A stretch of DNA of 64,000 bases from an uncultured Actinomycetota bacterium (GTDB taxonomy: Bacteria; Actinomycetota; Actinomycetes; JAHEKZ01), in NCBI GenBank assembly GCA_963848085.1, contig CAWKCE010000005.1:146282-210281 (forward strand), written 5' to 3'. The position numbers were made by a program, and so were the translations under genes. Below, one piece after another: positions 44,377 to 64,000 of the stretch. The notes beneath the pieces are model-generated. The model had not been told where the DNA came from. It searched no databases and saw nothing but the letters and a program-made list of their open reading frames with translations. The first letter of the stretch is position 1; every line of letters begins with the position of its first letter.

Positions 44377-44458
44377 TGGCAGGTGTTGGATTCGAACCAA
44401 CGTAGGCTGAGCCGACGGATTTACAGTCCGCTCCCTTTGGCCACTCGGGCAACCTGCC
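44377..44458 (-). tRNA. tRNA-Tyr (anticodon GTA) with long variable arm
   Basis: GGCAGGTTGCCCGAGTGGCCAAAGGGAGCGGACTGTAAATCCGTCGGCTCAGCCTACGTTGGTTCGAATCCAACACCTGCCA. Confidence 0.85.
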
Positions 44459-46915: not shown

Positions 46916-47025
46916 CCCTTGGTTATAACCCGTCGACGGCTCCAAGTGCCAATGGGAACCGGCCAGGAAGACCGCCCTCGCTCGGACCTGGCGTCACGGC
47001 CACCATCAGCGCTCCCGGCGCGACC

Positions 47026-47949: not shown

Positions 47950-48159
47950 GAGACTCCTGCGAGAAGAAGGGCGCGGCGCATCTGCTTGCCCTTAGTCAGC
48001 GCAGTCATCGCAGCAGTCGTACCCGGGCAGGCGCGGTCGACGGCCATCGCTCCGGTACATGTCTCGAACTGTAGGCCGGCACCCACCGGCAGGGAAGGGT
48101 GGACGTTCCTTGTCAGTCAGCCAAGCCGCGATCCCCGAGGGACCTTTGACGGCGGCTCA

Positions 48160-48385
48160 CTGCTATCCCCGGATGTCTGCACGTGGCTCAGGACAGACAT
48201 GCAGCGCCGCAGCCCGGCGCTGTCGGGCATTGACTGGGGCGCTCGATAACCCGGGACGATCACGAGCCTCCGTCGGCCGGCCGCCGCTGGCGAGACAGGT
48301 GAGGAGCGTGGGGTTACCCGCCCCGGTGCACCGCCCAGCGCTGTGTGAGGGCGAGGCGCACATAACGGCACCTCGGTTCGCTCGG
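48160..48385 (+). repeat. degenerate/composite copy of the 48-64 kb repeat family (conserved boxes GGATGTCT..., GTGGGGTT..., GCGCACATAACGGCACCTCGGTTCG; 5' module rearranged)
   Basis: Alignment by eye to copies at 50066, 52621 etc. Confidence 0.6.
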
Positions 48386-48393
48386 TGGCTCAT

Positions 48394-49383
48394 TCAGTCG
48401 GGGCCGCACGAGACCAGGATCTTGCCCGAACGTCCCCCGCGTGCTGCGTGCGCCACGGCCTCCTTGATTCTGCTCAGTGGGTAGACCTCCTCGACCTCTA
48501 CGGACAGGGCACCCTCGGCGAGCATTGACGCGAGCATCCGATACAACGTCGCGATCTCATCCGGCGGCGTCTCCGCGAACCAGCGGCGCAGCCAGAAGCC
48601 GGTCAAGGTCACGCCCCGGAAGATCAACTCGCGGCCGTCGATCATCGACGACTGGCCACTCAGGATGCCGTAGTTCACCACGGTGCCACCATCGGTCAAG
48701 CAATGCGCCAGGCTCTGGGTAGCCGCCCCACCAACCGCGTCGAGGGCGAGCGGCACGACTCCGTCGCCGATCACATCGCGGACGCGAGCAGCAAGTTCTG
48801 GACCATCGAGGACCACTACGTCGGCCCCGCCAGCACTTAGCGGCTCGATGAGTTGCGGCCTGCGGACCACGTTGATGCTCTTCATGCCGATCTCGCGGGC
48901 GAGCTCGGTGACCAGGCGCCCGACTCCGGAGTTTGCGGCGTTCTGCACCACCCAATGACCGGGCTCTGGAGCGACGAAATGGTGGAGCAACAGATAGGCG
49001 GTGGGCGGGTTGACCCTCAGCATGGCGAGTTGGCGAGGGTCGACTCCGCTGGGCAAGGCAAACACGGAGGCGGCGTTGCAGACCACACGTTCCCGCCAGG
49101 CGCCGGGACCGGGCAGCAACACCCGATCCCCGGCTTCCACGTGTGTCACGCCCGGGCCGACCATCGCCACAACCCCGACTCCTTCTGTGCCCACGACCAT
49201 CGGAAGGGCTGGGGGCGTCGCGCCGTAGTTCCCTGCCAAGTTCTCCAGGTCAGCGGGATTGATCGGGAACAGCTCCGCCTCGATCAGCACCTCACCGGCA
49301 CCCGGCCCACCCGGATCGGGCCGCTCGACAAGCTCGATCACCTCGTCAGCTCTGCCAAACCTCGACAACTGAGCAACCAGCAT
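48394..49383 (-). CDS. zinc-type alcohol dehydrogenase / quinone oxidoreductase (MDR superfamily); ATG start with GAGGGAG SD
   Basis: MDR fold with nucleotide-binding segment VVQNAANSGVG. Confidence 0.8.
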   Translation of the reverse strand: MLVAQLSRFGRADEVIELVERPDPGGPGAGEVLIEAELFPINPADLENLAGNYGATPPALPMVVGTEGVGVVAMVGPGVTHVEAGDRVLLPGPGAWRERVVCNAASVFALPSGVDPRQLAMLRVNPPTAYLLLHHFVAPEPGHWVVQNAANSGVGRLVTELAREIGMKSINVVRRPQLIEPLSAGGADVVVLDGPELAARVRDVIGDGVVPLALDAVGGAATQSLAHCLTDGGTVVNYGILSGQSSMIDGRELIFRGVTLTGFWLRRWFAETPPDEIATLYRMLASMLAEGALSVEVEEVYPLSRIKEAVAHAARGGRSGKILVSCGPD

Positions 49384-49592
49384 GGGCAGCTCCCTCGAAA
49401 CCGACACGCACGGACAAACTCGATCATGCCCCTGCGGCCCCCACAGGAAAGCCGGATCGCACCTATGCGCGGGTCGTCACCTCAGCGGCGGTCCGGCGGG
49501 TCATCCTGCCCGACAAAGCAGGTCCGAATGCCGGTCGACCCCCAGGAAGGCGATCGAGAACGGCACTTCGGTCCGCGGTGGACGGGTGGTGC

Positions 49593-50057
49593 TCAGTCCA
49601 CGACGCTCGGGTTGTCGTCTGGGTTAAACACCGCGATCTCGTCGGCGTTGAGGTCGCACTCTTCTGGGAGGTCGAGGGTGACATCGGCTGAGTCGGGCCG
49701 GGAGTAGCCACCTGTGCCCTTCACCGTCTGCCCCTCGGCGACCAGCGCGCCGGACGGCAGGCGCACCGAGAGCGGGTCGTCGTCCACGAGCTCAGTGCCG
49801 CTGGGCCAGATCGCCGCGACCACCCGGTCCGGTGCATCTGGAGATGCCAGGCCGACGCATCCGTTCTTCACGGTCAGCGTGCCGGCGATCAGCGCATCTA
49901 CGCCTCCTCGGGGCAGCAGGGAGCCGTCATGGACGAGCAGGGTGGCGCTCCCCTGCGTCGTAACCGACTGCCCGCCGCCGCATCCGCTCACCGACGCACT
50001 CAGCACCAGAGCGACGATCACCGGTCCGATGGTCCTCTTGACCTGGATAGCCCCCAC
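49593..50057 (-). CDS. hypothetical lipoprotein (GTG start; signal peptide with VSGC lipobox)
   Basis: N-terminal KRTIGPVIVALVLSASVSGC. Confidence 0.55.
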   Translation of the reverse strand: MGAIQVKRTIGPVIVALVLSASVSGCGGGQSVTTQGSATLLVHDGSLLPRGGVDALIAGTLTVKNGCVGLASPDAPDRVVAAIWPSGTELVDDDPLSVRLPSGALVAEGQTVKGTGGYSRPDSADVTLDLPEECDLNADEIAVFNPDDNPSVVD

Positions 50058-50065
50058 GCGATTCA

Positions 50066-50197
50066 GAATGCCGGATATCGCGCGGATCCGGGACCGGAGC
50101 CAGGGGGTGTCTTAACGATGTGTGGGGTTGCCGGCCTGCGTGCACCGCCCAGACGCTGTGTGAGGGCGAGGCGCACATAGCGGCACTTCGGTTCGGT
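50066..50197 (+). repeat. repeat family copy 1 (reference copy): 5' hairpin CCGGAT-N7-ATCCGG, box GAGCCAGGGGGTGTCTTAACGATGTGTGGGGTT, GC-rich variable centre, 3' box GCGCACATAGCGGCACTTCGGTTCGG
   Basis: Seen directly; non-coding (reading frames not conserved between copies). Confidence 0.85.
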
Positions 50198-50280
50198 CGA
50201 CCGCCGGCTCGTCAGAGGAAATGATCTCCGTTAATGGACACTCACGTCGTAGCAGTTCTGGGGAGGCCCGCTGGTCGGAG

Positions 50281-51300
50281 CTATCTGGTGGGCTGCAGCC
50301 GGACGTGCGTCGCGCCAGTCAGGCCCGGCCCCACCCTCCCGTCGAGCTCGACCCGGACCGCTTCGCGGCCGGTCGCTGAGTCCTGCGTCGCGTAGATCGC
50401 GGTCCCATCGGGCGCCCAGCTGGGCTGCCACACGTGCACGCCCCGGTCGACCGACGTCAGCTGGCGCCCCTCGGAGCCGTCCGGGGCCACGGTCCACAGG
50501 TCCCAGGTGTCGGCCCAGTCCGGCTGGTCGGCGGCGTACTGGACGGTCTCGACGCTGTAGACGATCGCGGATCCGTCGGGACTCCAGTCCGGGTAGTAGG
50601 CGTAGTCCTTGTAGTCGGTGAGCACCGTGGGCTTGCCGCCTGCCAGCGCAACGACGGCGATCGCGGACCCGGTCTCGTCCCCGTTGGCGTCGAAGCGGTC
50701 AATGCCGTAGACGAGCTGCTTGCCATCCGGTGACCACCTCGCGACGTCGACCAAGCGAGGCGAGGAGTCCTGGACGACCTGGCTCATCGTCCCCGACTGC
50801 AGGTCGAGGACCTCGATCGAGGAGGACTTAGGCGGTCCGTCGCGACCGGGTACGTACTGCGTGAACAGGATGCTGAGGCCGTCTGGAGACCACGCCGGGT
50901 AGTCGCAGTCCGAGCAGTCGTGCACGCGCTTCGCTGCAGTACCGTCGGGCGCCATGACCCACAGGCCGGACTTCTGGTCGGCGAAGACGACCCTCGTACC
51001 GTCGGGGGACCAGTCGGGGTGGAAGCCCTGAGCCACCCCTTCGGGGAGCACGTCGCGAGATCCACTCCCGTCGTTGCCCGCGAAGGTCACGCTGTCTCCA
51101 CCCTGAGATCCTTGCCACTGGTACACGAGCAGTGCCCCGGTTGGTACAACCCCGCCGGAGGAGCCCGACTGCGCGGGTGATGAATTCCCGCTTGGCGAGC
51201 CCGGACTCGTGGGCGCGACGGAGCCTCCCGAAGAGCACCCGACCACGACGGCCGCCGTCGCCGCCGCCGCACACGCCAACAGCCTGAGTCGTCGAACCAT
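50281..51300 (-). CDS. TolB-like beta-propeller lipoprotein (PD40/WD40-like repeats)
   Basis: Repeated WSPDG / PDWSPDG blades; lipoprotein signal AAVVVGCSSG; GGAGGG SD. Confidence 0.7.
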   Translation of the reverse strand: MVRRLRLLACAAAATAAVVVGCSSGGSVAPTSPGSPSGNSSPAQSGSSGGVVPTGALLVYQWQGSQGGDSVTFAGNDGSGSRDVLPEGVAQGFHPDWSPDGTRVVFADQKSGLWVMAPDGTAAKRVHDCSDCDYPAWSPDGLSILFTQYVPGRDGPPKSSSIEVLDLQSGTMSQVVQDSSPRLVDVARWSPDGKQLVYGIDRFDANGDETGSAIAVVALAGGKPTVLTDYKDYAYYPDWSPDGSAIVYSVETVQYAADQPDWADTWDLWTVAPDGSEGRQLTSVDRGVHVWQPSWAPDGTAIYATQDSATGREAVRVELDGRVGPGLTGATHVRLQPTR

Positions 51301-51379
51301 CGCGTCGCCCTCCATGGTGGTGCGCGCCCCAGTGGGCGCACGCCCTACCTGGTTTGAGGCACGACCCAGCGCCGAGGTT

Positions 51380-52306
51380 TCACGCCCTCACGGACGAGAT
51401 GCGGCCGGTGTAGGAGAGCGGGAGCTGATGGATGAGCTCCTCGTGGATCCGAGCGGCCACTCCTCCAACGTCAGGCACGGAGGTCTCGCGCAAGCGCAGC
51501 CGCAGACGGTCGCCGTCGCGATGCACGTCGTACGAGGTGTCACTCGGTGGATCTGGCACCTGGTGATGTGTGAGCACGGTCCCGATCAGCTGGTGCGCGC
51601 CGTTGTCGAAATGCTCGCCTGCGGCGGTGCCGAACCAGAAGGCTCCGTTGGCCACCTCGAGCACCCAGCGGGTCTTGCCGCGCGGCATGTGTTCCAGGAT
51701 CGCTTCGGTCTGGTCGCTGAAACGGTGCTCGCGCATCCACGCTGCGCACCAATCCGGCCCGACCAGCTCCTCGCTGACCCAGCGACCCGACATATCCCCG
51801 AGCCGCGACGCCAGTGCGATCCGAGCCCGCCGCAGCCACGTCTTCACAGTGGCCTCGGGGACTCCCAGCTCTCGGGCCACCTGCGCGACCGGGAGGTCCG
51901 CGAGGTAGTGGAGCTTCACCGCGGCGGCGTGCCTCGTCGGCAACGCCGCGATCGCGCGTAGAAGGTCGTCGTCGACAGGGCTCAGGAAGCTGTACGTCTG
52001 ACGCCCGGCCTCCGCTTCGGCCTCCCGAGGCACTCGCCGCGCCTCGCGCTGTGTCGTGCGCCAGGCCAAGCGCGTCGCCACCATCGTGATCCACGCCAGA
52101 GGCTCGTCGCACCTGGCGACGTCGGACCAACGGCGCGCGGCGATCGCATAAGCCTCCTGGACGACGTCGTCCGCCTGCTCTCGGCAGATCGGGCGCAAAG
52201 ACCGGACCAGCCGCGCCGCGTCGGAGGCGTACAGCTGGCCTAGGTCCGGTGGTTGGTCTGCCACCCCGCCATTGTCGGGCCTCTCCGCCGGCGAGCGAAA
52301 GCGCAT
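51380..52306 (-). CDS. ECF-type sigma-70 factor with ~150-aa C-terminal extension; start uncertain
   Basis: Region 2 (DVVQEAYAIAARRW) and region 4 HTH (LPVAQVARELGVPEATVKTWLRRARIAL) followed by extra domain. Confidence 0.7.
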   Translation of the reverse strand: MRFRSPAERPDNGGVADQPPDLGQLYASDAARLVRSLRPICREQADDVVQEAYAIAARRWSDVARCDEPLAWITMVATRLAWRTTQREARRVPREAEAEAGRQTYSFLSPVDDDLLRAIAALPTRHAAAVKLHYLADLPVAQVARELGVPEATVKTWLRRARIALASRLGDMSGRWVSEELVGPDWCAAWMREHRFSDQTEAILEHMPRGKTRWVLEVANGAFWFGTAAGEHFDNGAHQLIGTVLTHHQVPDPPSDTSYDVHRDGDRLRLRLRETSVPDVGGVAARIHEELIHQLPLSYTGRISSVRA

Positions 52307-52620
52307 TGAAGCGCTGAGCCGGAACGTATGACGGCTCCAGCCGAGCGGGGGGAGAGTCCTACCGGTACTACTCGGGTAGCCGGATGACGGAGTGTCAGCA
52401 TGTCGGCCGCGTGGCCGACGAGTTCTCGACGGCCACGCCAAGTCTGACGGCATCGAGCCGCAGTCGCGCTGGCCCCTGCTGGCCGGCCACTGCGGCCAGG
52501 GGCGCTGACCGGCTGCCTAACCGCAGAGACATCACAGAGCGGGACGCAGCTACCGACCGTCTTGGTGCCGCTCACCTGGTGCTCCGACTGCTCCGCCCGC
52601 GTCGGTGCAGTTGAGCAGCC

Positions 52621-52766
52621 TAATGCCGGATCTTGGGCGGATCCGGGACGACGAGCCAGGGGATGTCTTCACGATGTGTGGCGTTACCCGCCCCGGTGCA
52701 CCGCCTCGGGGCATCGCCCAGGCGCTCCGCGAAGGCGCGGGGCATAACGGCACATCTGCGCGTCGC
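52621..52766 (+). repeat. repeat family copy 2 (longer variable centre)
   Basis: taatgCCGGATcttgggcGGATCCGGGAC...GAGCCAGGGGATGTCTTCACGATGTGTGGCGTT...GGCATAACGGCACATCTGCG. Confidence 0.85.
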
Positions 52767-52794
52767 CCGGGGTCCGGACACGTAGCCTGCGGGC

Positions 52795-53148
52795 ATGGAG
52801 AGGACCTCCGACGCCGTAGACGAGTACATGGCGAGCCTGGAAGGCGATGCGCACACGATCGCTCAGGAAGTTCGGCAGATCATCCAACGTGCAGCACCTG
52901 GGATCCACGAGACGCTGCGCTACCAGATGCCGTGCTTCGCGATCGACGGGCAGTACCTGGTCTACCTAGGGGCGTGGAAGAAGCACCTCGGCCTCTATCC
53001 GATCCCGACCCTCGACGGCGAGCTCGAGCGCGATCTCGCGCCCTACCGTGCCGCCACAGACACCGTTCGCTTCCCCTACCGCCAGGCGATCCCCTACGAC
53101 CTCATCGAACGACTCGTCGCGGCACTTGTGGATCGGATACGTGACTGA
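52795..53148 (+). CDS. DUF1801 (YdhG-like) family protein
   Basis: LRYQMPCFAIDGQYLVYLGAWKKHLGLYP motif. Confidence 0.7.
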   Translation: MERTSDAVDEYMASLEGDAHTIAQEVRQIIQRAAPGIHETLRYQMPCFAIDGQYLVYLGAWKKHLGLYPIPTLDGELERDLAPYRAATDTVRFPYRQAIPYDLIERLVAALVDRIRD

Positions 53149-53317
53149 CCGCCAGCCCTGAGACCGAGTGCGTCTGTCGGGCGGGCACGAATGCAGAGCC
53201 GTCTGTCCAGAATCGAGGCAGAACGGCACGTCTGTTCGCGCAGCCATGCGGTCTGCACCGGCCCAGTTGTAGCCTGCGCGAGAGGCCGTCGGGTCGTCAG
53301 GGCTCGACCAGTCCTTG

Positions 53318-53590
53318 ATGGAGGGTTCTGTGGCGATCAAGGTCGTTGTCGAGTTCCAGGCCGAGCCGGGTGCACGCGCGGAACTCATGAGTCTGCTCGC
53401 GAGCATCTCAGCGACACATCAGCCGACAACCCCCGGATTTATCGGCAGCTCGGTGTATGAGGTGCTGGACAACCCTGACGGCGTCATCGAGATCGCCGAG
53501 TGGGAGTCAGCGGAGGCGCAGGCCGCCGCTGCCGAACAAGCGATGGGTCTGGGGGTCGGACCCTCCCCCTACGCGCCGTACCGGGAGTAA
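53318..53590 (+). CDS. antibiotic-biosynthesis-monooxygenase (ABM) domain protein
   Basis: ~90-aa ferredoxin-like ABM pattern (IKVVVEFQAEPGARAEL...VIEIAEWESAEAQAA). Confidence 0.65.
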   Translation: MEGSVAIKVVVEFQAEPGARAELMSLLASISATHQPTTPGFIGSSVYEVLDNPDGVIEIAEWESAEAQAAAAEQAMGLGVGPSPYAPYRE

Positions 53591-53592
53591 CC

Positions 53593-54357
53593 ATGAACAA
53601 AACTCTGCTGATCACCACCGCAGCCGCATCGGTGCTGGCAGTCGCCGGCTGCACGTCCAGCGCCAGTGACAACGCCGCACCCGCCTCACCGGCGGCGGCC
53701 CCCACCACGCAATCGCCGAGCCCAGCTGCTGTCGACGTGCCCAACTGCCCGAATCCTCATGGCGGCAGTTGCCTCGGGACGCTCGAACCGGGCGAGTACC
53801 AGACCACCACCTTCGCGCCGCAGCTGACCTACACCGTTCCAGCGGGGTGGACCAACCTGGAGGACCTACCGGGCAACTTCCTGCTCGAGGACGTGAAAGA
53901 CCCCCAGCCGGACAATGCTCTCGGCGGCAGCTACTTCGGCATATACACCAACGTCTACGCGGCTGCGATCGCCTGCAAGGAAACCTCACAGAAGGGCGTC
54001 GGCATCAAGCCCAAGGAGTTGGTCGCCTGGTACCAGTCCGTGCCCGGGCTCATCGTTTCCACGCCCAAGAAGGTGTCCGTCGGCGGACTCCGCGGACTCC
54101 AAGTCGACCTATCCGCCAAGCCGAAAGAGGAACCGTGCACCTTCGACGGGTACGCAGCGGTACCACTCATCATCGGCGACGGTGTCTCCCAGGTGCATCA
54201 CGTCGTAGGCAAGGGGCAAGACGTCCGGTTGGTCATCTTGGGCTGGAACGACGGCAACGTGACCCTGGAGATCACCAACGTGGACAAGCAACACAGCGCC
54301 AAGGACTACCGAGCCCAGGTCCAGCCGATCATCGACTCGATGGAGTTCAAAGCCTGA
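53593..54357 (+). CDS. hypothetical lipoprotein (signal + AGC lipobox); true start internal to ORF-track entry
   Basis: MNKTLLITTAAASVLAVAGCTSS...; GGGAG SD. Confidence 0.6.
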   Translation: MNKTLLITTAAASVLAVAGCTSSASDNAAPASPAAAPTTQSPSPAAVDVPNCPNPHGGSCLGTLEPGEYQTTTFAPQLTYTVPAGWTNLEDLPGNFLLEDVKDPQPDNALGGSYFGIYTNVYAAAIACKETSQKGVGIKPKELVAWYQSVPGLIVSTPKKVSVGGLRGLQVDLSAKPKEEPCTFDGYAAVPLIIGDGVSQVHHVVGKGQDVRLVILGWNDGNVTLEITNVDKQHSAKDYRAQVQPIIDSMEFKA

Positions 54358-54540
54358 CCACAGGCTGGAGCGGAGCCCGGCCCGGGCCCGGAGCGAGCGA
54401 GCCACGGACCGGACCCGCGCACGGCCTGTAGACCCAACGGCCCATGCCTTGCCGTCCCCCTTGTCGGCGTAGGTTGCGGTGGCCAGTCGGTCGGCGAAGC
54501 GGTGCCCAGTCACGCGCACACTTTGCCAGTGCCAGCCGCG

Positions 54541-54677
54541 CATACTGCCGGATATTGCGAGCAAACGGGACGGGGGCCCAGGGGGTGTCTTAATGATGTG
54601 TGGGGTTCGCCGCCCCGGTGGCCCCGCCCCCAAGCTCCGTGTGGTAGGAGCGCACATAACGGCACCTCTGTTCGGGC
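54541..54677 (+). repeat. repeat family copy 3
   Basis: catactgCCGGATattgcgag...CCCAGGGGGTGTCTTAATGATGTGTGGGGTT...GCGCACATAACGGCACCTCTGTTCGGG. Confidence 0.85.
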
Positions 54678-54771
54678 TCGGACTGAAGAGACGACCTGAT
54701 CCTGGCGGCACCCAGCGGTGGGTCCGCCCTGCTAGAGGGCCGGTCCCTCGGCGCTCGTTCATGCATGACTG

Positions 54772-55443
54772 TTAGGTCGGCGTGTCCCCGAACCGCGTCC
54801 AGTGCCCTTCGGAGACCACGTCGGAGGAACCGTCGACGACCCTGATGGCCGTCTGTTCGTCGATGGCATAAGCCGGGATACCGATGTCGGCGGCCCAGCG
54901 CTCTGCGTCGGCCTGACTGTTCTCCGGGAAGGCGTCCAGGTGCGGGAAGATCGAGAAGTCGACGACTCCCAAGGTGCGGTCGTCCAGGGCTGCTGGCCAC
55001 TCCACGAAGTCCGTTCCGATCCGGGGTGTCATCACCATGCTGCCGGCGCTCACACCCACCCAGACCGTGTCGAGTAGCGACGGCAGTAGCTCGGCGAGGC
55101 CGGACTCCTTCATCCAATGGCACAGGTACGTCGCGTCACCACCGTCGACCAGGAGTGCGTCGGCCTCCCGAACCCAGGGAACCCATCGCTCCGCCCCGAT
55201 GGTGGGAAGCGCGGTCAACTCGAGGACTCCGAGCGATGCCCAGCCCAGGCCTGACAGGTGGTCCCATCCGGGATCGGCGGCCACGAAGCCCCGCACCGAG
55301 GTCGGACCACACATCGGGTGGCCCCATTGCCCGGTGGGGATGCAGAGGGCGTGGCACTCGGTGATCGGCTTGCCGAGAAGCTGCACGAGCGCTGAGTGGA
55401 TGCTTGGGTTCGTGACTCCGCCCGACGTCAGCAGCAGCCGCAT
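54772..55443 (-). CDS. peptidase E (S51) / class-I glutamine amidotransferase-like family protein
   Basis: MRLLLTSGG... and GVSAGSMV nucleophile elbow; GGGAGG SD. Confidence 0.65.
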   Translation of the reverse strand: MRLLLTSGGVTNPSIHSALVQLLGKPITECHALCIPTGQWGHPMCGPTSVRGFVAADPGWDHLSGLGWASLGVLELTALPTIGAERWVPWVREADALLVDGGDATYLCHWMKESGLAELLPSLLDTVWVGVSAGSMVMTPRIGTDFVEWPAALDDRTLGVVDFSIFPHLDAFPENSQADAERWAADIGIPAYAIDEQTAIRVVDGSSDVVSEGHWTRFGDTPT

Positions 55444-55627
55444 GGGGCCTCCCAATTCGTCTCAGGCTGAAGGTAACCATTGCCAGTCAATCTCATGAGT
55501 CACATCAGCCGAACGCGACGGGCCGGTCGCTCGTCAGCAGGCGATCCAGATCGGCACTTCGGCTTCGCCCCGCCAATCCCCAGAGGGAACACCCGTCCTG
55601 CTGGGCTGAGGGCGGCGGGTCGCGGAC

Positions 55628-56212: not shown

Positions 56213-56404
56213 ATGGCAAGTGGTGTCCGACACCAAGTGCTCCCAAGCAGTTGCGAAGTGGAAGAAGTCGCCCGGACGATATCGGGCGGCATCTTCCGGG
56301 GCCACCGAACGCGAATGCCGGAGTGGCTGTGCACCCGACGTCCCCTATCGGCAGCTGCCGATCGCGCTCCTCGGCGTTGGATGGCACCGCGCTCGACGTT
56401 GTAG

Positions 56405-56758
56405 TCAGTCGGCCTCAAGGTGCCCGAAGCGGCGAACCTCCTGGGGCCAGCCGCAGGCCTCCGCGATCTTTCCCGCCCACATCGTGGCAGCCTCGTCATC
56501 AGCCACGTCCACCACGGTAAACCCGCCCAAGATCTCCTTGGTCTCCACGAACGGTCCGTTGGTGATCACCAAGGTGCCGCTGGTGGTGTCGGCGCTGTAG
56601 ACCGGGCCGTCCTGCTCCAGCCCACCGGCGAAGAGGTACGCGCCAGCAGCCTTGATCTCGTCCACCACCGCCTCGGCGAGCGGTCCGCGCGCGCGGAACC
56701 ACTCCTCGGTGTGGTCGCCCACCCACTGCTGGTTGAAGTAGATGAGGTACTCGGCCAT
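56405..56758 (-). CDS. YciI-like (YCII-related) domain protein
   Basis: MAEYLIYFN...GPLAEAVVDEIKAAGAYLFAGGL...GGFTVVDV pattern. Confidence 0.65.
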   Translation of the reverse strand: MAEYLIYFNQQWVGDHTEEWFRARGPLAEAVVDEIKAAGAYLFAGGLEQDGPVYSADTTSGTLVITNGPFVETKEILGGFTVVDVADDEAATMWAGKIAEACGWPQEVRRFGHLEAD

Positions 56759-56913
56759 GACCACTCCTTCTCCTCCGGGGACCCAATGGCCCGCGTCGCC
56801 TACCCTACGAACGGCAACAGGCGAATCCGACTCGGTCACACCAGAGCGAACACCGGGCATCGGCCTGGCAACGGCGAGTCCTCCCGCTCATCGGCATGAG
56901 CGCCGCCGGAGGC

Positions 56914-56990
56914 CGCGCATACTGCCGGTGATCTCAACCGGTCGATGCAACACCCTCGTTGTTTGGGGGTCGTGTCGTCGGGAGGTTGGG
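56914..56990 (+). repeat. relic partial copy of the repeat family (shares 15-mer CGCGCATACTGCCGG with copy 3)
   Basis: Seen directly; rest diverged. Confidence 0.4.
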
Positions 56991-57120
56991 ATGGTCAGGT
57001 TGTCGGTGGAGGAGAAGGCGGAGATTCGGAAGTTGGCGGGGGCGTAGCGGCCCAATGGCTCGGCGCGTCGCAGCTATAGAGTCACAACCCACGAGTCGTG
57101 CGAGGCGAAGGAGACTTGCG

Positions 57121-57591
57121 GTGGAGATCAAGGAACTCGGGCACCTGGTTCTCTACGTGCGCGACCTCAAGGCGTCGGTGCACTTCTACCGCGACGTCCT
57201 GGGCTGGCGACCGATCCTCGGCGGAGACGACGACGAACCGCTGCCGTTTCCGGCCGCCGCCTTCAACGCGCCGTCCAACCGCACCCACCACGAGCTGCTG
57301 CTCATCGAGGTCGGCAAGGACGCCACTGCGATCCCGCACGGCCGACGCGTGGGTCTGTACCACTTCGGCCTCAAGGTCGGCGACAGCGACGACGAGCTGC
57401 GCGAGGCACTCGCCACACTGCAGGAGAACGACGTTACGATCCTCGGTTCCAGCGACCACACGGTGACGCACAGCCTCTACATCGCCGACCCCGACGGCAA
57501 CGAGGTCGAGCTGTTCATCGACGTCCCCGGCGTCGACTGGAAGAACGACCCGGCGCTCATCGCCGCCCCGGTCAAGCCCCTCGTGCTCTGA
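57121..57591 (+). CDS. VOC/glyoxalase-family protein (GTG start, AAGGAGA SD)
   Basis: (V)EIKELGHLVLYVRDLKASVHFYRDVLGW...HHELLLIEV...GLYHFGLKV pattern. Confidence 0.75.
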   Translation: MEIKELGHLVLYVRDLKASVHFYRDVLGWRPILGGDDDEPLPFPAAAFNAPSNRTHHELLLIEVGKDATAIPHGRRVGLYHFGLKVGDSDDELREALATLQENDVTILGSSDHTVTHSLYIADPDGNEVELFIDVPGVDWKNDPALIAAPVKPLVL

Positions 57592-57709
57592 ACGAGCCCG
57601 CTGATCCTGACAAGGACGTCTATCCTTCCAACGCCGGGCGCTAACTCCCCGCGACGGTCAGTGGGCGCCGATCCCGAGCGGGCCGCCAGTGTGACGGATC
57701 AATGAGCGC

Positions 57710-57843
57710 GAATGCCGGATATTTGGCGGCCCCGGGACCACGAGCCAGGGGATGCCTTAACGATGTGTGGGTTTGCCGGCCCAGGCGCCCCGCCCAGGCG
57801 CTCCGCGAGGGCGGGGCGCCGACAACGACACGTCGGTTCGGGT
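57710..57843 (+). repeat. repeat family copy 4
   Basis: GAATGCCGGATatttggcGGCCCCGGGACcacGAGCCAGGGGATGCCTTAACGATGTGTGGGTTT...CGGTTCGGG. Confidence 0.85.
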
Positions 57844-58381
57844 TGGGCCTGCCGTGACACCCGGTTTCAGCTCGGGCCGTGCCACCGGACTTCAGCCACT
57901 TCCGACCGGGACGCTCTTGAGACCAGCGGACCGGACGACTGGTGTATGCCCAGGTCGTCGGCGGTGACCCGTCACCCAAGGGCGCCGAGCAGACCGAGTC
58001 GGCAAGCCCCGGTGCTCCTCATGCCGACATTCGCCCGAGGCTGACCTTGCGTACAACAGGTCAGTCGGCCGCAAGGCGCCAGGGTTCGCCCGCCGACGCT
58101 CATCGTCCGCCAGGCGCTTCGTCGCGACCGGGTCAACGACGCTAGGACCGGCGAAACGGTCATACAACGAGCGACGGCCACCAAACAGGCACAGGCGCCA
58201 TCCCAAGGCCTCCCCCGCAACCCCACACCAGTTGGTCCTTCTCGGCTTCCCGCCTCCGGGGCATTCCCTCTGGACACCCGAGACGCTAGACAGCCTGACC
58301 CGGCGCTATCCGGCTCTCGACATCGAGCCGTGGCTGGCCGCTGCGCCCTTGGACTGATCACGGCCACGCACTGAGGGCGAG

Positions 58382-59113
58382 TTACGACTCCAGCTCCCAC
58401 AGCTTGCGGTAGTAGGCGATCCGTTCCTCGTCCGGTTCGATTCCGTAGGACTCGAAGAACTCACCTTGATGGCCTTCACCGAAGTTCCAGTCGAGGCTCA
58501 AGGAGGCGATGGCCAGGTCCGCCCATCGGTCGCCCACCGCCAAGTCACCGAAGTCGACGTTGCCCGTCCACTCCCCGGAGGACGAGATCAGCGTGTTGGG
58601 TGCACACGCGTCCCCGTGGACAACCACCGGCTCATCCACTGGGGGGCGGGGGCCGATCGATGGAGGCGTGCGACCGACCCAGACCTCCGATGTCCAGCCG
58701 GCTGGGAAATCATCGGTGGGGATCGAATGAATAGATCGAAGGCCCACGGCGATGGCCCGGATCGCCTCCGGCCGACGGGCGCGCCAGTTGTCTCCGACAG
58801 CGTGCTCGCCGGGCAGCGCCTCGGTGACAAGCCACTGGGCCGCCTCGTCCCCGCCGAAGTCGAGCACCCGCGGAGCCGGATGGCGCTTCGAGATCCACTC
58901 GAGCCGCACCTTCTCTCGCCCCAGATCAACACCGGCCGACCGCGGATACCACTTCACATACGTATCGCCGGCACAGAAGGTCAGACCGCCAAGTTCGCTG
59001 CGCCAGATGAGGTCCTTGGGACGCGCCCCGGCTAGCTGGACCACGATGTCCGGCACGGGATCATCCCCCAGGGAGTGAAGGGCATCCAGGTCCGAGAGGT
59101 CGCTTCCCGTCAT
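58382..59113 (-). CDS. aminoglycoside phosphotransferase (APH family, APH(3')-like); alternative TTG start at 59146
   Basis: VVHGDACAPNTLI and VDFGDLAVGDRWADLAIA motifs (Brenner and DFG-like). Confidence 0.8.
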   Translation of the reverse strand: MTGSDLSDLDALHSLGDDPVPDIVVQLAGARPKDLIWRSELGGLTFCAGDTYVKWYPRSAGVDLGREKVRLEWISKRHPAPRVLDFGGDEAAQWLVTEALPGEHAVGDNWRARRPEAIRAIAVGLRSIHSIPTDDFPAGWTSEVWVGRTPPSIGPRPPVDEPVVVHGDACAPNTLISSSGEWTGNVDFGDLAVGDRWADLAIASLSLDWNFGEGHQGEFFESYGIEPDEERIAYYRKLWELES

Positions 59114-59317
59114 GGCATCAGGTTCCCCGTCGCGCGGGCGTTTCAACTATTCCCGCCCGCTGGCCTTGCGAGCAGCGACCTCGACGCGGACGTGGTACGC
59201 CTTCCACCGACAGGCCAGCCGGCCTGTCGGGTCGCCGGGACCGAAGGCCTGCCCATGCCCACGGACCCGACACAAGACGGTCAGGTGCGCCGATAATCGG
59301 ACCCACGTGACGGCGGT

Positions 59318-60025
59318 TCAGTTCTTCGTCGCAGGGGACTGGGCGACGCATACGACTCCGGTGTTGCCGTCCTGGTCGGCGATCACGGTGAGCGACGGCG
59401 CGTCGCTGTCATCGACGACCGTCCCACCCGCGGCGACGGCCGCGGCGATTCGTTGCTCGGCCACCTCGGGCGCCACATAGACCTCGACGTGGAACCGCTG
59501 ACGCGGGGTCTCGTGCTCGTCGGCGTCCCCGAACCACAGGTTCGGTACCCGACCCGTGGCGTCCCGGATCTCGTCGCTGGGGGACCCGTGGCCCTGGGCT
59601 CCGGCGTTCCCGGTCAGCAGGGCGGCCCACACCGGGGCGATGGTCGCGGAGTGCGCCGTGTCGAGGCCGAGCTCGATGACGCTGACCGAGGCGGGGTCGG
59701 CGTCGACCTTGTGCTCGGCGGCGATCTCGGTGATCCGTCGCGCGAGGTCGACGTCCTGCTGGGTCACCCATTCGACGACGTGTTCGGTGCCCTCGTCGTC
59801 GCGGTAGATGGCGTCGGCGCTGACCAGCTTGAGGTCGACGTACCCGTCGCCGATCGCCACGCTCGGGTGGTGTCCGAGCGCGTCGCCCGCCTCGCCTACC
59901 GTGGCGACGAACCGTGCGCCGGTGCCGAAGTCGTCGACCAGGTAGCGGGCATGCAGTCCCTGTGCCAGCTTGCGCCAGTCGGTCAGCTTGGCCTCGGCGA
60001 TCTCCTCGCCCTTCAGCATGTCCAT
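59318..60025 (-). CDS. fusion protein: pterin-4a-carbinolamine dehydratase (PCD/DCoH) domain + VOC/glyoxalase-like domain
   Basis: N-terminal ...LTDWRKL...GDALGHHPSVAIGDGYVDLKLVS (E-x-HHP-like motif); C-terminal glyoxalase-like half. Confidence 0.6.
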   Translation of the reverse strand: MDMLKGEEIAEAKLTDWRKLAQGLHARYLVDDFGTGARFVATVGEAGDALGHHPSVAIGDGYVDLKLVSADAIYRDDEGTEHVVEWVTQQDVDLARRITEIAAEHKVDADPASVSVIELGLDTAHSATIAPVWAALLTGNAGAQGHGSPSDEIRDATGRVPNLWFGDADEHETPRQRFHVEVYVAPEVAEQRIAAAVAAGGTVVDDSDAPSLTVIADQDGNTGVVCVAQSPATKN

Positions 60026-60182
60026 GTTCGGGGACCCTAACTGTGATTCAGCCGAAGCGGGGCTGGGTGCGCCGCGGGGCCCTGACTGCGCGTCAGCTGC
60101 GCTTTGCGTCGATCGCTCGGTCGACGATGTTCCCTCCGGAATATCGCCACGTCCAAATCCCGCCCGACCACCGGCGATGCCT

Positions 60183-60295
60183 CATGCCGGATACTGCGCG
60201 GATCCGGGACCGGGCCAGGGGATGTCTTGACGATGTGTGGGGTTAGCCGCCCCGATGCTCTGTGAGGGGGCGCACATATCGGCACTTCAGCGCAG
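60183..60295 (+). repeat. repeat family copy 5 (shortest)
   Basis: catgCCGGATactgcgcGGATCCGGGACcGGGCCAGGGGATGTCTTGACGATGTGTGGGGTT...GCGCACATATCGGCACTTCAGCG. Confidence 0.85.
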
Positions 60296-60367
60296 GTCCT
60301 CTGACCGTCCGGTGTGCCCTCATTGAGTGTCCATGCTGGTGTGCCTGACACGAGGTCGCTGGTTGCC

Positions 60368-61690
60368 CTATGCCGTCGGGTCGACGACGTGTCCGACGAA
60401 GACCGGCGTTTGAGTGGGTTCGTGGACCACTGCCCAGGCGTACGGCCGGTCTACTCCCATCGTCTTCGTGGTGATGGGACCTGAGACAAGCATTCCGATA
60501 CCGGTGACGGCGGCAGCTTCGGACCCTTCCTCGTCGACGGTGATGTTCGCGCGATGAACTGCCTGGCTGACCGTCACTCCGGGAGCAATACCGGTGAGGT
60601 CACCCAGACTGCTGAGACCCAGCGCGCTCAGCGCACTCAGCAGCTCCAAGTCCGTGCCGGTGTCCCAGCGAGGCAGGGTGAGGTCCACCGCTTGGGTCGC
60701 GTCGGCCGCTACCGGGGCGGTGGCGACCGGCAACAGAGCGTTCAGGGCGGGCAGGTCGCGCACCACGGTTCGCGGGAGCACGACGCGCATGGTCAGCTCG
60801 TCGCCGACGTACGGCAGGGTGATCCGTTGCCACCGGTCGTTCTCGGTGTACCGGACTGGCTCGGTCGTCTGGCGCATCATCTGTGCCTGCACTGACGAGC
60901 CGGCGGAGGTTGTGAAGAGTCCGGTTGTGGTGGCTGAGGCGGAGAACTGGGTGACCCAGGTGGCCTTGAGGTAGACGGCGTTGGCGAGCACCATCAGCGT
61001 GTTGGGGTCGAGCTGGTCGAAGAGTCTCTTGATCCGGCCGTGAGTCTGCTTCGTCACCCAGGCGTTGATGGTCTCTGTCGCTGCCGGGGAGCCGAAGTCC
61101 ACACTGTCTGGGTGCGCTCCGTACTGGGCAGCGAGCAGGTCGAGGAATGGCTGTTCGACCGAAGGTCCGAATCCGTCAGCCACGAACAGCCCGTTGGCGA
61201 CCGCGACCACGGGGGTCGGGGCCGGCTGCTCGCTCGGTGGCGGTGGCGGGGTCACCAGGTGCGCCGTGAGTGCGTTCAGAGCCTGGTGCGGTGAACCTTC
61301 GGCGCGGTTGCTCGGCGGAAAACCAAACACAGCGTCGATCTGGGTGGCAGTCTCCCCGCGACTTCCCGCGCGCAACATCCCGAAGGCCACCGCGATCGAC
61401 AGCGGCGACACGGTGAAGTTGGCTGACGGTGCGGCAGCAAGAGCGTGCAGATGCGAGGCAAACGCGTCCATCCCCGCCACAACTTCGGGCAGGTCGGGCG
61501 CTTCGGACAGCGAGACGACGGCTCTGTCGACCTGGGACACCCTGATCGGCCCCGCTGGTCCACCTCCACCCGGGGCCGCTGACTGGGAACACCCCACCAG
61601 GGCCGGCGCCGCCCCGACTGCGAGGAGACCGAGCATCGTGAGCATGGTCCGACGAGAGAGCAGTTCGGCCGAGCGGTCAACCGGTTGCAT
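60368..61690 (-). CDS. serpin-family serine protease inhibitor with Tat-like/lipoprotein signal; true start internal to 482-aa ORF
   Basis: NAVYLKATWVTQF..., RCL-like C-terminal region; N-terminal SRRTMLTMLGLLAVGAAPALVGC. Confidence 0.7.
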   Translation of the reverse strand: MQPVDRSAELLSRRTMLTMLGLLAVGAAPALVGCSQSAAPGGGGPAGPIRVSQVDRAVVSLSEAPDLPEVVAGMDAFASHLHALAAAPSANFTVSPLSIAVAFGMLRAGSRGETATQIDAVFGFPPSNRAEGSPHQALNALTAHLVTPPPPPSEQPAPTPVVAVANGLFVADGFGPSVEQPFLDLLAAQYGAHPDSVDFGSPAATETINAWVTKQTHGRIKRLFDQLDPNTLMVLANAVYLKATWVTQFSASATTTGLFTTSAGSSVQAQMMRQTTEPVRYTENDRWQRITLPYVGDELTMRVVLPRTVVRDLPALNALLPVATAPVAADATQAVDLTLPRWDTGTDLELLSALSALGLSSLGDLTGIAPGVTVSQAVHRANITVDEEGSEAAAVTGIGMLVSGPITTKTMGVDRPYAWAVVHEPTQTPVFVGHVVDPTA

Positions 61691-61872
61691 CAAGAACGGC
61701 CACCTTCCCCTACTCCACCTACGACGACTGGGCGACCTCGCCCGTTCCTCGACGCCGCAAGTACCTCCCGACATGCGGAAACACAGCCGACCTCCGCCAC
61801 TCGGTGGCGGCAGCACAGTGGTGGCGTGTCAACAATCGGTGCCAACTGTCGCACGCGCCGCCCAGGCAAACC

Positions 61873-61993
61873 GAATGCCGGATGCCGGGCTGTTCCGGGG
61901 AGAAGCGAGTCAGGGGACGGATGGGCGATGTGTGGGGTCGCCCGCCAGGTGCTCTACGAGGCCGGCGAGGCACACATGACGGCGCATCTGCAC
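61873..61993 (+). repeat. repeat family copy 6 (more diverged)
   Basis: GAATGCCGGATgccgggctgTTCCGGGGAgaagcGAGTCAGGGGAcGGATGGGCGATGTGTGGGGTcg...GCACACATGACGGCGCATCTGC. Confidence 0.8.
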
Positions 61994-62019
61994 CGGGTCC
62001 GATCCAGATCCGAGTTGCG

Positions 62020-62481
62020 CTAGTCCTCGATGACATCCAGACCCTGCTCTCGGAGCAGTGCCAAGCGATCGAGCATGCCCTTCAGCACTTCCGGGGAGTG
62101 CCCCTCCCACTTCTCCACCTCGCTGACTACCAGCAGCGGATGGCGGGTGCGGTAGGACTGTGTGATGTTGCCGGGGAACTTCTTGTTCGTCACGTTGGGG
62201 TCGTCCTCGAAGGGGCCGGTGGGCCTGACGACATAGATGTAGCCCCGCTCTCCGGTACCCGCGCGAGCAGTCGCCAGCTCCGCCCCCCATGCCGCGGTGT
62301 CCACGAGCGCGGTGAAGTAGATGTTGTTCGACACCCTGCCTTCGTGGAAGTTGGAGCCGTAACCGGGCAGGAGCTCTTCTCCGACCGTGAGCGCGGATTT
62401 CGTTCCGTGGTAGAAGGGTCCCTCGATGTGGTCGCAGTTCTCGTAGGTAACCGGAATGTGCGTGCTTCTGGGTTCTTCCAC
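62020..62481 (-). CDS. arr: NAD(+)--rifampin ADP-ribosyltransferase (Arr); GTG start; the 317-aa ORF-track entry is over-extended
   Basis: EGPFYHGTKSALTVGEELLPGYGSNFHEGRVSNNIYFTALVDTAAWGAELA...GYIYVVRPTGPFEDDPNVTNKKFPGNITQSYRTRHPLLVVSEVEKWEGH matches the Arr family along its length; GAGAGGA SD. Confidence 0.85.
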   Translation of the reverse strand: MEEPRSTHIPVTYENCDHIEGPFYHGTKSALTVGEELLPGYGSNFHEGRVSNNIYFTALVDTAAWGAELATARAGTGERGYIYVVRPTGPFEDDPNVTNKKFPGNITQSYRTRHPLLVVSEVEKWEGHSPEVLKGMLDRLALLREQGLDVIED

Positions 62482-62665
62482 ACGTGTCCTCTCGAATTCA
62501 TCCGACGCTCTGGGTGGCACCCGAATCTGGCGGCTATCACCTACGGCCGGGTCGGCAGGCGCGAACGATACAACGCCCCTCAAGGGAAGCACGCCAGACA
62601 TTCCTTGGCCCGGGTCCCGAAGGACCCATGACCCTCGTCCGCCCAACCCTGGAATAGTCCCTGTC

Positions 62666-62965
62666 ATGGGCGACCCGCCGGAACTTCGCCACAGCGGACA
62701 CTGGAGGATCGCTGTTTGGGCCCTTCGAGTGGGGTACGTCGGGCTGGCCGTCGCCATTGCCGGCCTCATCGTGACGTCGTTGGGATACACGCCGTGGGTG
62801 CTGGCCGTTGGGGTGATCATTTGGCTCGCCGCCGCAGCCGTCACGTTGGCGGGGTTCTTCTGGTCCCGGCACGAGCTTCCCGAGCCACGACCTGGGTTCT
62901 GGTCGATGCGGTTCATGCTCGTCCACGACACGGTCCACGCCCAGTCGCCGTCCCAGCGGTCCTGA
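62666..62965 (+). CDS. hypothetical small membrane protein (2 TM helices)
   Basis: MGDPPELRHSGHWRIAVWALRVGYVGLAVAIAGLIVTSLGYTPWVLAVGVIIWLAAAAV... Confidence 0.4.
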   Translation: MGDPPELRHSGHWRIAVWALRVGYVGLAVAIAGLIVTSLGYTPWVLAVGVIIWLAAAAVTLAGFFWSRHELPEPRPGFWSMRFMLVHDTVHAQSPSQRS

Positions 62966-63070
62966 CAGCCCATTCCTCGGCCGCTGCGTCCGCCGTACGC
63001 CAGTCTCCCGACTCGTCCACCGACCCGGATGTGCCACCACCGATCGGCTTCGAAGGGTGCCCCGTATCAC

Positions 63071-63190
63071 TGGAAATTGGGGACTTCCGGGACTCACGAG
63101 TCAGGAGATGTCCTCGCGACCTGTGGGGTTCCCCGCCCACCGCCCGGGCGCTCCGCGAGCTACGGGGAACACATACCCGCACATCTTGCG
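63071..63190 (+). repeat. repeat family copy 7 (5' hairpin module diverged)
   Basis: ...TTCCGGGACtcacGAGTCAGGAGATGTCctcGCGAcctGTGGGGTTcc...ACACATAcccGCACatcttgcg. Confidence 0.75.
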
Positions 63191-63267
63191 CGCCTCACCG
63201 GCAGGCCACGTACCTCGGGGGCCTGGTCAGTAGTGCGTTCGCGGCGTGACGGCCGTAGATTCCCAGG

Positions 63268-63621
63268 ATGGGCCTGGAATGGGAGCAAGTGGTCGTGGAC
63301 GCCGCAGACCCGGTGATGTTGGGCCGGTGGTGGGCTAACGCCCTCGGATGGGTCGTGGTGAACGACGCGCCGGAAGAGTTCGAGATACAACCCGCGGCGG
63401 ATCGGCTGCCCGGACTGATCTTCGAACCAGTCGGAGAGGCGAAGGGCGGCAAGAACCGTCTTCACTTGGACTTCCGGCCCGACGACCAGCAGGCCGAAGT
63501 CGCGCGCCTCCTGGGCCTCGGCGCTCGGCACGCGGACGTCGGCCAGGGACAGCAGTCCTGGGTCGTGCTGGCAGATCCCGAAGGCAACGAGTTCTGTGTG
63601 CTGTCATCCAAACGCACGTAG
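63268..63621 (+). CDS. VOC/glyoxalase-family protein (bleomycin-resistance/glyoxalase I-like fold)
   Basis: MGLEWEQVVVDAADPVMLGRWWANALGW...RLHLDF...VVLADPEGNEFCV. Confidence 0.7.
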   Translation: MGLEWEQVVVDAADPVMLGRWWANALGWVVVNDAPEEFEIQPAADRLPGLIFEPVGEAKGGKNRLHLDFRPDDQQAEVARLLGLGARHADVGQGQQSWVVLADPEGNEFCVLSSKRT

Positions 63622-63709
63622 CCACCTCAGCCTCCGTCCATGCTCGGTAGGCGACGGCAGCCAATCCAACTGGGGGCAGTCCGGGCTGTCCGGCACCCGA
63701 GCGATCGTC

Positions 63710-63835
63710 CCGGATGTTGGCCGGCTCCGGGACCCACGAGTCAGGGATGTCCCAGCGATGCGTGAGGTTGGCTGGTGAAGGGACGCCCCTCCAATTGGAG
63801 AGCCAGTCGCGTGCGCACAGAACGGCACTGCGGGG
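63710..63835 (+). repeat. repeat family copy 8
   Basis: CCGGATgttggccGGCTCCGGGACccacGAGTCAGGGATGTCccagCGATGcGTGAGGTT...GCGCACAGAACGGCACTGCGGGG. Confidence 0.8.
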
Positions 63836-63893
63836 CGGTCAGTTTGGACCAGCTGAAGGCGGTCTGGCTCTGGCCGGGGCCGGTCTCGTTCGA

Positions 63894-64000
63894 TCAGACA
63901 AGTGGGTCGAACATGATCTCCCGGACCTCCTGCGCACAGCGGCACGCGACGGCGAACTTGGCAGCCCACTCCAGCGCATCCTCGCGCGAGGGCACGTCGA
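63894..64000 (-). CDS. YciI-like domain protein, C-terminal fragment (gene runs off window end)
   Basis: C-terminus ...EDALEWAAKFAVACRCAQEVREIMFDPLV resembles C-terminus of the YciI-like protein at 56405-56758 (...EAATMWAGKIAEACGWPQEVRRF...). Confidence 0.45.
   Translation of the reverse strand, partial: DVPSREDALEWAAKFAVACRCAQEVREIMFDPLV

Follow-up and report, generated by a model that had tools for sequence, protein, structure and literature searches.

A strain-variable accessory-gene island divided by a family of co-oriented repeats in an uncultured Actinomycetota bacterium

Integrons are the textbook device by which bacteria stockpile and shuffle accessory genes. Large surveys have found integrons to be essentially absent from Actinobacteria, with complete integrons lacking there altogether, for a reason that is not known (PMC9024848; PMC13323075). 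A locus from this phylum that resembles a cassette array raises the question of what could divide a chromosomal region into exchangeable genes where integrons are missing. The present study addressed this question in a window of 64,000 nucleotides (the whole stretch of DNA that was analysed) from an uncultured Actinomycetota bacterium (GenBank assembly GCA_963848085.1, contig CAWKCE010000005.1), in whose last 16 kb an earlier note, made from the sequence alone, had described a structured repeat on one strand and proposed a sedentary chromosomal integron or a cluster of attC sites lacking an integron integrase (CALIN). We found that the locus is a lineage-specific hypervariable accessory-gene island, split into modules by a novel family of co-oriented repeats, and that it is at these repeats that near-identical strains gain, lose, and exchange modules. 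The island has the features by which an integron-like cassette array is functionally defined, namely co-oriented sites, strain-variable modules, and junctions at the sites. Of the original proposal, the cassette-array behavior stands, but the array has no integrase and no conserved attC boxes; by defining features it does not qualify as an integron, nor as a CALIN of attC sites, and only behaves like one.

Module turnover between htpX and nuoN

The genes nuoN and htpX are immediate neighbors in at least 15 related species; the 22.4-kb interval that separates the two genes here (window 46946 to ~5.4 kb past the window's end), which holds an EamA gene, the array, RidA, and a methyltransferase, is therefore a lineage-specific insertion. 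The nearest genomes are metagenome-assembled genomes of uncultured Actinomycetes labelled Nanopelagicales or Sporichthyaceae, with an HtpX identity of 75–81%. Six relatives were inspected for another repeat family at the same locus and none was found, these relatives being without the island. Sequence past 64 kb was obtained via near-identical metagenome contigs, in which the last strong repeat copy is followed, in order, by YCII, a cupin, two P-loop proteins, a DinB/MST protein, two glyoxalases, RidA, a methyltransferase, and nuoN-nuoK. The array thus extends ~4 kb beyond the window, up to RidA, the methyltransferase, and nuoN, while its near flank is formed by EamA, htpX, and tRNA genes. No recombinase domain, Phage_integrase included, was found in the array, in the 48 kb on its near side, or in the nuo operon on its far side; the integrase and attI that had been predicted to lie beyond 64 kb are therefore not there, the extended sequence running through small genes to RidA, the methyltransferase, and nuoN.

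Assemblies that are 98.9–100% identical to the window over the segments they have in common nevertheless differ in their modules. The 227-kb contig L093/L104 has in common with the window the flank up to the first (boundary) repeat copy, a segment carrying an alcohol dehydrogenase (ADH) gene (48306–49568), and the far end from 63107, and has 5.8 kb in place of the 13.5 kb that lie between them in the window (49568–63107). These 5.8 kb hold an Eis-like protein and two more GNAT acetyltransferases, a P-loop paralogue, HIT, DUF4386, and others, together with diverged repeat copies of their own. Between EamA and ADH, the same contig has an additional DUF3500 gene and a Ble-like glyoxalase, and L105 has an extra PadR/HAAS/79-aa module between the Ble-like glyoxalase and ADH. 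The Ble-like glyoxalase module, with a short (mini) repeat copy before it, occupies one array position in L104 and L105, and at 92% identity it occupies another in the window (57048–57840). L125 and L126 no longer match the window from 53546 on and have another mini copy at their end. The related species L012 has, in place of the 12.3 kb of window 48061–60360, 3.4 kb of unrelated genes (lipoprotein, opposite-strand ADH, DsrE-like), and its repeats are a half copy, a full copy, and a relic. Four or five of the six variable segments have repeat copies at both ends, and the earlier view that the repeats partition the region into accessory modules was borne out, with the modules varying among strains.

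The ADH segment shows no difference between the window and L104 over 1263 nt, although both of its neighbors differ. The flank adjoining it carries 70 differences in 7490 nt (0.9%), from which ~11.8 would be expected in the ADH segment (P ~7e-6), and the segment was therefore exchanged recently and independently of its surroundings. Repeat halves follow their genes, the left halves going with the left gene and the right halves with the right gene, for DUF3500, ADH, and the Ble-like glyoxalase. The window's own module order is backed by independent contigs that span repeats. Look-ups of Arr, serpin, and DUF1801 returned mostly the window's own arrangement, with many short-read contigs stopping at repeats. 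Many independent short-read serpin contigs of ~2.25 kb (L110–L117) end inside both flanking repeat copies, which suggests assembly-graph branching, that is, alternative neighbors in the population.

The repeat family and its junctions

A direct-repeat search of 47–64 kb recovered one repeat family, which occurs in a full form of ~150 nt and a mini form of ~45 nt. A covariance model (CM) built from the copies matched nine full copies in the window at 91–148 bits, and with one mini and one decayed full-length copy they make up a real same-strand array between 48.2 and 63.9 kb, as had been claimed:

48214–48395, plus strand: boundary copy, a hybrid of a flank left half and an ADH-type right half (CM 90.8 bits)
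49527–49570, plus strand: mini copy of 44 nt in which only both ends are kept, GAATGCCGG...AACGGCACTT (also given as GAATGCCGG...GAGAACGGCACTT)
50062–50210, plus strand: full copy (CM 148.3 bits), CGGCAC starting at 50181
52617–52779, plus strand: full copy (CM 126.1 bits), CGGCAC starting at 52748
54539–54689, plus strand: full copy (CM match), CGGCAC starting at 54660
56914–57044, plus strand: decayed full-length copy, with a mini copy at the same position in L011 and L104
57706–57855, plus strand: full copy (CM 134.8 bits), hexamer CGACAC starting at 57826
60178–60311, plus strand: full copy (CM 119.7 bits), CGGCAC starting at 60280
61869–62009, plus strand: full copy (CM 104.6 bits), hexamer CGGCGC starting at 61980
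63061–63208, plus strand: full copy, of which L093/L104 has the 3' part only (junction J1 at 63107)
63701–63854, plus strand: last strong copy (CM 101.4 bits), CGGCAC starting at 63823

All nine full copies share one orientation, for which chance gives ~0.4%, within the bound of 1% put forward before, and all copies in the further arrays of L104, L105, and L012 are co-oriented as well. The repeat is always intergenic, and its orientation stays constant though the adjacent genes point either way. A copy had been placed near the stop codon of the last minus-strand gene of every module; this holds for most minus-strand open reading frames (ORFs), but the aph stop is 527 nt from the nearest copy. 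The relic reported at 56914–56990 is genuine and longer, extending to 57044, and the mini copy at 49527–49570, with homologous minis in L011, L104, and L125, is an addition to the earlier list. The copy near 48160 had been taken for simply the most decayed one. It is instead a hybrid whose left half is chromosomal flank, being flank-specific with an insertion of ~45 nt, and whose right half equals the ADH-associated right half of L104; a three-way alignment puts the switch between the halves inside GCGTGGGGTT.

On the plus strand, a full copy begins with a 5' hairpin (CCGGAT-N9-ATCCGG), followed by GAC..CGAGCCAGGGGATGTCTTAACGATGTGTGGGGTT and a variable G+C-rich stretch of 33–62 nt; its 3' part consists of GGCGCACATAA-CGGCAC and a tail of one of two classes, TCGGTTCGG or ATCTGCGCG. 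The description of the repeat as structured, and the expectation that it would fold like attC, did not hold: DNA folding z-scores of the copies range from −2.6 to +1.7 over both strands, the predicted pairs are 87% paired against 86% in shuffles, covariation is essentially absent, and there are no near-perfect hairpins. Searches of Rfam under both gathering and E-value thresholds gave no family for the repeat, the region yielding tRNAs and a faint YrlA match only, and scans for promoter and terminator consensus sequences gave nothing inside the copies. The Y-RNA-like YrlA match falls on one copy (54573–54683; 22.6 bits vs a gathering score of 69) and stems from a GGGG-TTCGCCG-CCCC hairpin that resembles a tRNA T-arm, the T-loop consensus not being kept by other copies. 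An origin of the GGGG-TTNCCCG-CCCC hairpin from a tRNA 3' end was dropped, as no tRNA model fits, and so was a conserved peptide encoded by the repeat, because indels change the frame among copies.

With the CM, no copy was found on either strand of window positions 1–48000, filters off included, nor in 1.33 Mb around htpX from 80 related genomes. An exact core pattern had 0 matches in 185,579 species-representative genomes and hit only three contigs in JGI metagenomes, all of them this locus (two from the same strain and one from a related species at ~86% nucleotide identity). Of the 5 window copies that fit the pattern, this JGI scan picked up 3, and it gave no hit at any other locus, which speaks against a large number of scattered copies. 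The repeat had no counterpart in viral collections, scanned twice by pattern, or among plasmids and phages, searched by BLAST. Over the sequence reached (48 kb of adjacent chromosome, related genomes, and metagenomes), the family occurs at this locus only, in this species and in one close relative.

About ten junctions between strains were mapped, six of which lie in two conserved blocks of the repeat, AACGGCAC and GYGTGGGGTT. Four independent junctions lie directly 3' of AACGGCAC or up to two bases further:

49568: junction J2, after the mini copy, window vs L104
PadR-module insertion: junction in L105
57045: junction of L011 vs the window
48385: junction of L012 vs the window

The other two are in GYGTGGGGTT. 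At one of them, the window's boundary copy joins the left half of the L104 flank copy to the right half of the L104 ADH copy, the switch falling within a 10-nt identical stretch; at the other, the DUF3500-associated right half stands on two different left halves in L104 and L105.

Gene content of the island

Gene identities were taken from Pfam searches of the window's ORFs, which support ADH, PD40, an ECF-like sigma factor, DUF1801, ABM, S51 peptidase, RibD_C, YCII, several glyoxalases, APH, serpin, and Arr. The repertoire listed before agrees with these in outline, except that ABM is at 53330–53590 and not at 53191–53460. The island's genes within the window are the following:

47026–47949, minus strand: EamA transporter gene (Pfam), the first gene of the lineage-specific insertion, adjoining htpX (46055–46945)
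48394–49383, minus strand: zinc-type ADH module (Pfam)
49593–52453, minus strand: two modules, a 154-aa protein without assigned function and a PD40 beta-propeller with an ECF-like sigma factor, the copy at 50062 lying between them
52795–54357, plus strand: inverted module of DUF1801, ABM, and a 254-aa lipoprotein-like gene (Pfam)
54772–57591, mixed strands: S51 peptidase, RibD_C, and YCII (minus), the decayed repeat copy, then the Ble-like glyoxalase at 57121–57591 (plus) (Pfam)
58382–60025, minus strand: APH phosphotransferase and a pterin-4a-dehydratase/glyoxalase fusion (Pfam)
60368–61690, minus strand: serpin of 440 aa (Pfam), conserved in the related species L012
62020–62481, minus strand: Arr rifampin ADP-ribosyltransferase (Pfam)
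62666–62965, plus strand: 99-aa membrane protein
63268–63621, plus strand: Glyoxalase_6 (Pfam)

Modules measure 0.5–3 kb, many of them holding 2–4 genes, and more than 10 sites fall in 20 kb. EamA is absent at the nuoN-htpX junction of the relatives; a look-up of the exact EamA product gave no record, and a homologue of 64% identity was found in an unrelated gene context. The ECF-type sigma factor (51380–52453), which has a long C-terminal extension, forms one two-gene module with the PD40 beta-propeller (50281–51315), a pairing not usually expected as cassette-like cargo. ABM has one 3' end in the window (53330–53590) and another in L125 (1261–1554) and L126; in the window the 254-aa lipoprotein-like gene starts 2 nt after it, as though its arrival had replaced the ABM end. 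The ~527 nt from the repeat copy to the aph stop (57855–58382) contain no ORF with coding-like codon bias; they may be what is left of a gene, or else non-coding. In the composite sequence past the window (64923–66217; L001 4383–5679), two adjacent P-loop NTPase-like genes of 198 and 173 aa lie between MST and cupin without a repeat; at their place L093 (11159–11977) has a small unrelated gene between two weak repeat copies, and elsewhere in the L093 array is a paralogue 79% identical to the 173-aa gene.

Window positions 1–44 kb are a core ribosomal-protein region (str/S10/spc) with tuf, fusA, rpoB (26356–30048), rpoC (22416–26291), rplKAJL, and nusG-type genes, all on the minus strand. Replication from high to low coordinates follows from this, and most array genes are co-oriented with the direction so inferred. 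Third-position GC is 0.78–0.86 in the array vs 0.85–0.95 in the core genes. Four minus-strand tRNA genes were found, three at 44045–44458, ~3.7 kb before the start of the array, and a fourth at 34155–34227; no att-like duplication of tRNA 3' ends was seen in the repeats.

Explanations for the exchange and comparison with known systems

Foremost among the explanations is an integron-analogous cassette island that recombines at its repeats, with the enzyme coming from elsewhere or the exchange being driven by homology, for and against which we hold the balance to be about even. Each repeat would then be a recombination site, with the conserved 3' block as the best crossover candidate and the ~120 nt to the left of an 11-6-11 core as an accessory arm. 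With no recombinase gene in the island or next to it, the enzyme would have to act in trans; candidates are XerC/XerD of the host and a tyrosine recombinase encoded at another place in the genome. A pair of co-oriented sites would recombine to excise a module as a circle with one site, and this circle could re-enter at any other site, following the logic of integron cassettes, Xer-exploiting elements, and dif modules. We infer that the repeats serve as recombination sites for an enzyme whose gene lies elsewhere, probably a tyrosine recombinase that acts at this dif-like core, and that exchange driven by homology or microhomology contributes as well; some events, such as the GYGTGGGGTT crossover and the off-repeat junctions, are better explained by the latter.

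The candidate core around the commonest junction has an 11-6-11 layout, which on the plus strand reads GGCGCACATAA, CGGCAC, and a partly palindromic arm, and on the minus strand ..GCGCAnAW, GTGCCG, and TTATGTGCGCC. The hexamer CGGCAC is found in 19 of 22 tabulated copies, minis included. Palindromy of the arms averages 4.8/11 against a null of 2.86 ± 0.32, with 0 of 5000 resamples as high and 9/11 in the best copy, while many right arms are weak. The layout and an inner TTATG resemble the dif sites listed in PMC2731167; TTATGT is the inner arm (minus strand) in most full copies, with GCGCC as the outer arm. The mycobacterial dif is known here only via primer sequences in PMC5364183 and was inferred from them, which leaves any comparison with actinobacterial dif a tentative one. 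In mycobacteria, cassettes with direct dif sites on both sides, anywhere in the chromosome, undergo spontaneous excision by XerCD (bioRxiv 10.1101/758037), which makes a recombinase acting in trans plausible in this phylum, and hybrid pdif sites mark exchanges of dif modules (PMC13141974). A second palindromic core around GTGGGGTT was sought by eye, and none was found.

Several observations weigh against recombination at dedicated sites. No recombinase was identified in the island or in either flank. The palindromy statistic overstates independence because the copies share descent, the mini copies have no conserved left arm, and the repeats have no A at dif position 25, a base described as highly conserved in XerD arms of the TTATGTnAAnT type (PMC2731167). 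Four of the ~10 junctions are off both blocks: J1 lies within a truncated copy, J3 and J4 lie exactly at the cupin start codon and the MST stop codon, and one is in the ABM 3' end. The crossovers occur in two different blocks, over which identity between the parental copies also runs longest, so that homology-driven recombination predicts the same positions. Lastly, copy 54539–54689 has a counterpart in L105 that is 95.7% identical but stands among wholly different neighbor genes on both sides, which a single-site cassette model does not predict.

A stronger version of the cassette-island reading, which we regard as possible but lean against, is that of an unrecognised actinomycetotal gene-capture system, in which small modules of accessory genes, each with a ~150-nt site made up of a dif-like 11-6-11 core and an accessory arm, would be excised and put back at a fixed chromosomal locus by a recombinase encoded elsewhere, possibly the housekeeping XerCD. 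If true, such a system would fill the "missing integron" niche in a phylum virtually without integrons. The island carries resistance-type genes (arr, aph, bleomycin-type glyoxalases, and Eis-like acetyltransferases), and these turn over without integron parts. A dedicated or co-opted recombinase acting here would be an independent solution to the same problem, one missed by current integron-finding tools; if the exchanges are homology-driven only, the locus is still a clear case of a locus-confined repeat making an island into exchangeable modules.

Of the rivals, the one that survives best, though we consider it unlikely, takes the repeat for a small non-autonomous element, similar to a miniature inverted-repeat transposable element (MITE) or a palindrome-associated transposable element (PATE), in an already variable island. 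It would possibly be moved as single-stranded DNA by an IS200/IS605-type transposase, and the strain differences would come from homologous or microhomology recombination between copies together with ordinary gene gain and loss. With strand-specific transposition of single-stranded DNA in a single replichore, as in IS608, copies of uniform orientation are to be expected. The discrete ends with short terminal inverted bases (TGCCG...CGGCA), the 5' hairpin, minis that retain only both ends, the lack of a visible target duplication, crossovers at the longest identity blocks, and the 95.7% identical copy among unrelated neighbors in two strains all speak for this element. Against it, the repeat has no copy off the island in the adjacent 48 kb, the 1.33 Mb of related genomes, or the metagenome matches, and no match in plasmid, phage, and viral collections; no transposase was seen, and four or five of the six variable segments are copy-bounded at both ends.

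Less probable again is a tandem accretion of tiny integrase-less integrative elements, in which the repeat would be an attP-like site crossed over in its middle at GTGGGGTT, the boundary copy by EamA would represent a hybrid of attL type, and an integrative element elsewhere would provide the integrase. That copy does have a flank-specific left arm and a normal right arm, a state common to L012, repeat halves do travel with the adjacent genes (DUF3500, ADH, and Ble-like glyoxalase), and two crossovers are at GTGGGGTT. Four junctions are at the AACGGCAC block instead, around GTGGGGTT no inverted binding sites of the core type can be made out, the far end is without a complementary attR-type hybrid, and there is no known integrase.

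A classical sedentary chromosomal integron or CALIN, with IntI acting on folded attC hairpins and an integrase and attI just past the window, is nearly excluded, and largely refuted as far as a cis integrase is concerned. The attC sites of chromosomal integrons are similar in length to the ~130–150-nt repeat, co-oriented repeats do follow most minus-strand ORFs, the gene repertoire is cassette-like, and content varies among strains. No tyrosine recombinase occurs, however, from the ribosomal-protein and rpoBC side through the array to the nuo operon; a TTAAC-like stretch is not conserved among the copies, their folding z-scores are ordinary and without covariation, the junctions lie mid-repeat and at the end opposite to that predicted by an attC R' box for minus-strand ORFs, and Actinobacteria are without complete integrons in the surveys cited above. 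Only a single RYYYAAC...GTTRRRY pair was found on either strand of 20 kb, and it lies outside the repeats. This pair, GCCTAAC...GTTGAGC at 52515–52616, with its boxes 102 nt apart and two complementarity mismatches, lies directly left of copy 52617 and is probably due to chance. We likewise give very little credence to a transcript-level element (3'-UTR stabiliser, terminator, or small RNA) with an incidental link to gene turnover, for which the always intergenic position, the conserved 5' hairpin, and the faint Y-RNA-like match (22.6 bits vs 69) can be cited, but which is opposed by the lack of an Rfam family and of promoter or terminator consensus in the copies, by a fixed orientation despite neighbor genes in both directions, by folding and covariation no better than controls, and by the concentration of strain junctions in the repeat.

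Set beside known systems, the cassette island resembles integron arrays and CALINs in its small, mostly unrelated accessory genes (arr, aph, glyoxalase/bleomycin-type, GNATs, and DUFs), in one species-specific repeat family of single orientation, and in content that differs between close strains; as with a CALIN, no integrase adjoins it. It differs from them in repeats that have no R''/R' boxes and are not near-perfect hairpins, in crossovers that fall mid-repeat and in the 3' block, in many modules of 2–4 genes, in having no known IntI, and in its actinobacterial host, from a phylum without reported complete integrons (PMC9024848). With the pdif modules of Acinetobacter and the integrative mobile elements exploiting Xer (IMEX), it has in common modules without a recombinase of their own, sites of 28 bp in an 11-6-11 layout (here a candidate), and hybrid sites at exchange junctions, with arms from different parental sites; in those systems the host supplies the enzyme, and the same is proposed for the island. 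Sites of pdif alternate as C/D and D/C on plasmids (PMC13141974), and dif modules are defined by alternating inverted sites on Rep_3 plasmids, whereas the island's sites are all co-oriented and chromosomal, and its putative core is embedded in a conserved element of ~150 nt; this core is like dif only in the inner arm TTATGT and in partial palindromy, A25 being absent.

Accretion of cis-mobilizable elements (CIMEs) and integrative and conjugative elements (ICEs) offers a likeness in its direct att-like repeats between integrase-less segments and in a hybrid boundary site at the chromosomal flank, but the island packs modules of 0.5–3 kb and more than 10 sites into 20 kb and has neither a tRNA-derived core nor an integrase-bearing partner nearby. 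The minimal mobile elements of Neisseria, and the arrays of Correia and neisserial intergenic mosaic elements (NIMEs), are similar in their alternative cassettes between conserved flanking genes and in small intergenic repeats tied to rearrangement. Exchange in the Neisseria systems proceeds by homologous recombination in the flanking core genes, whereas in the island it is internal, at co-oriented and locus-confined repeats.

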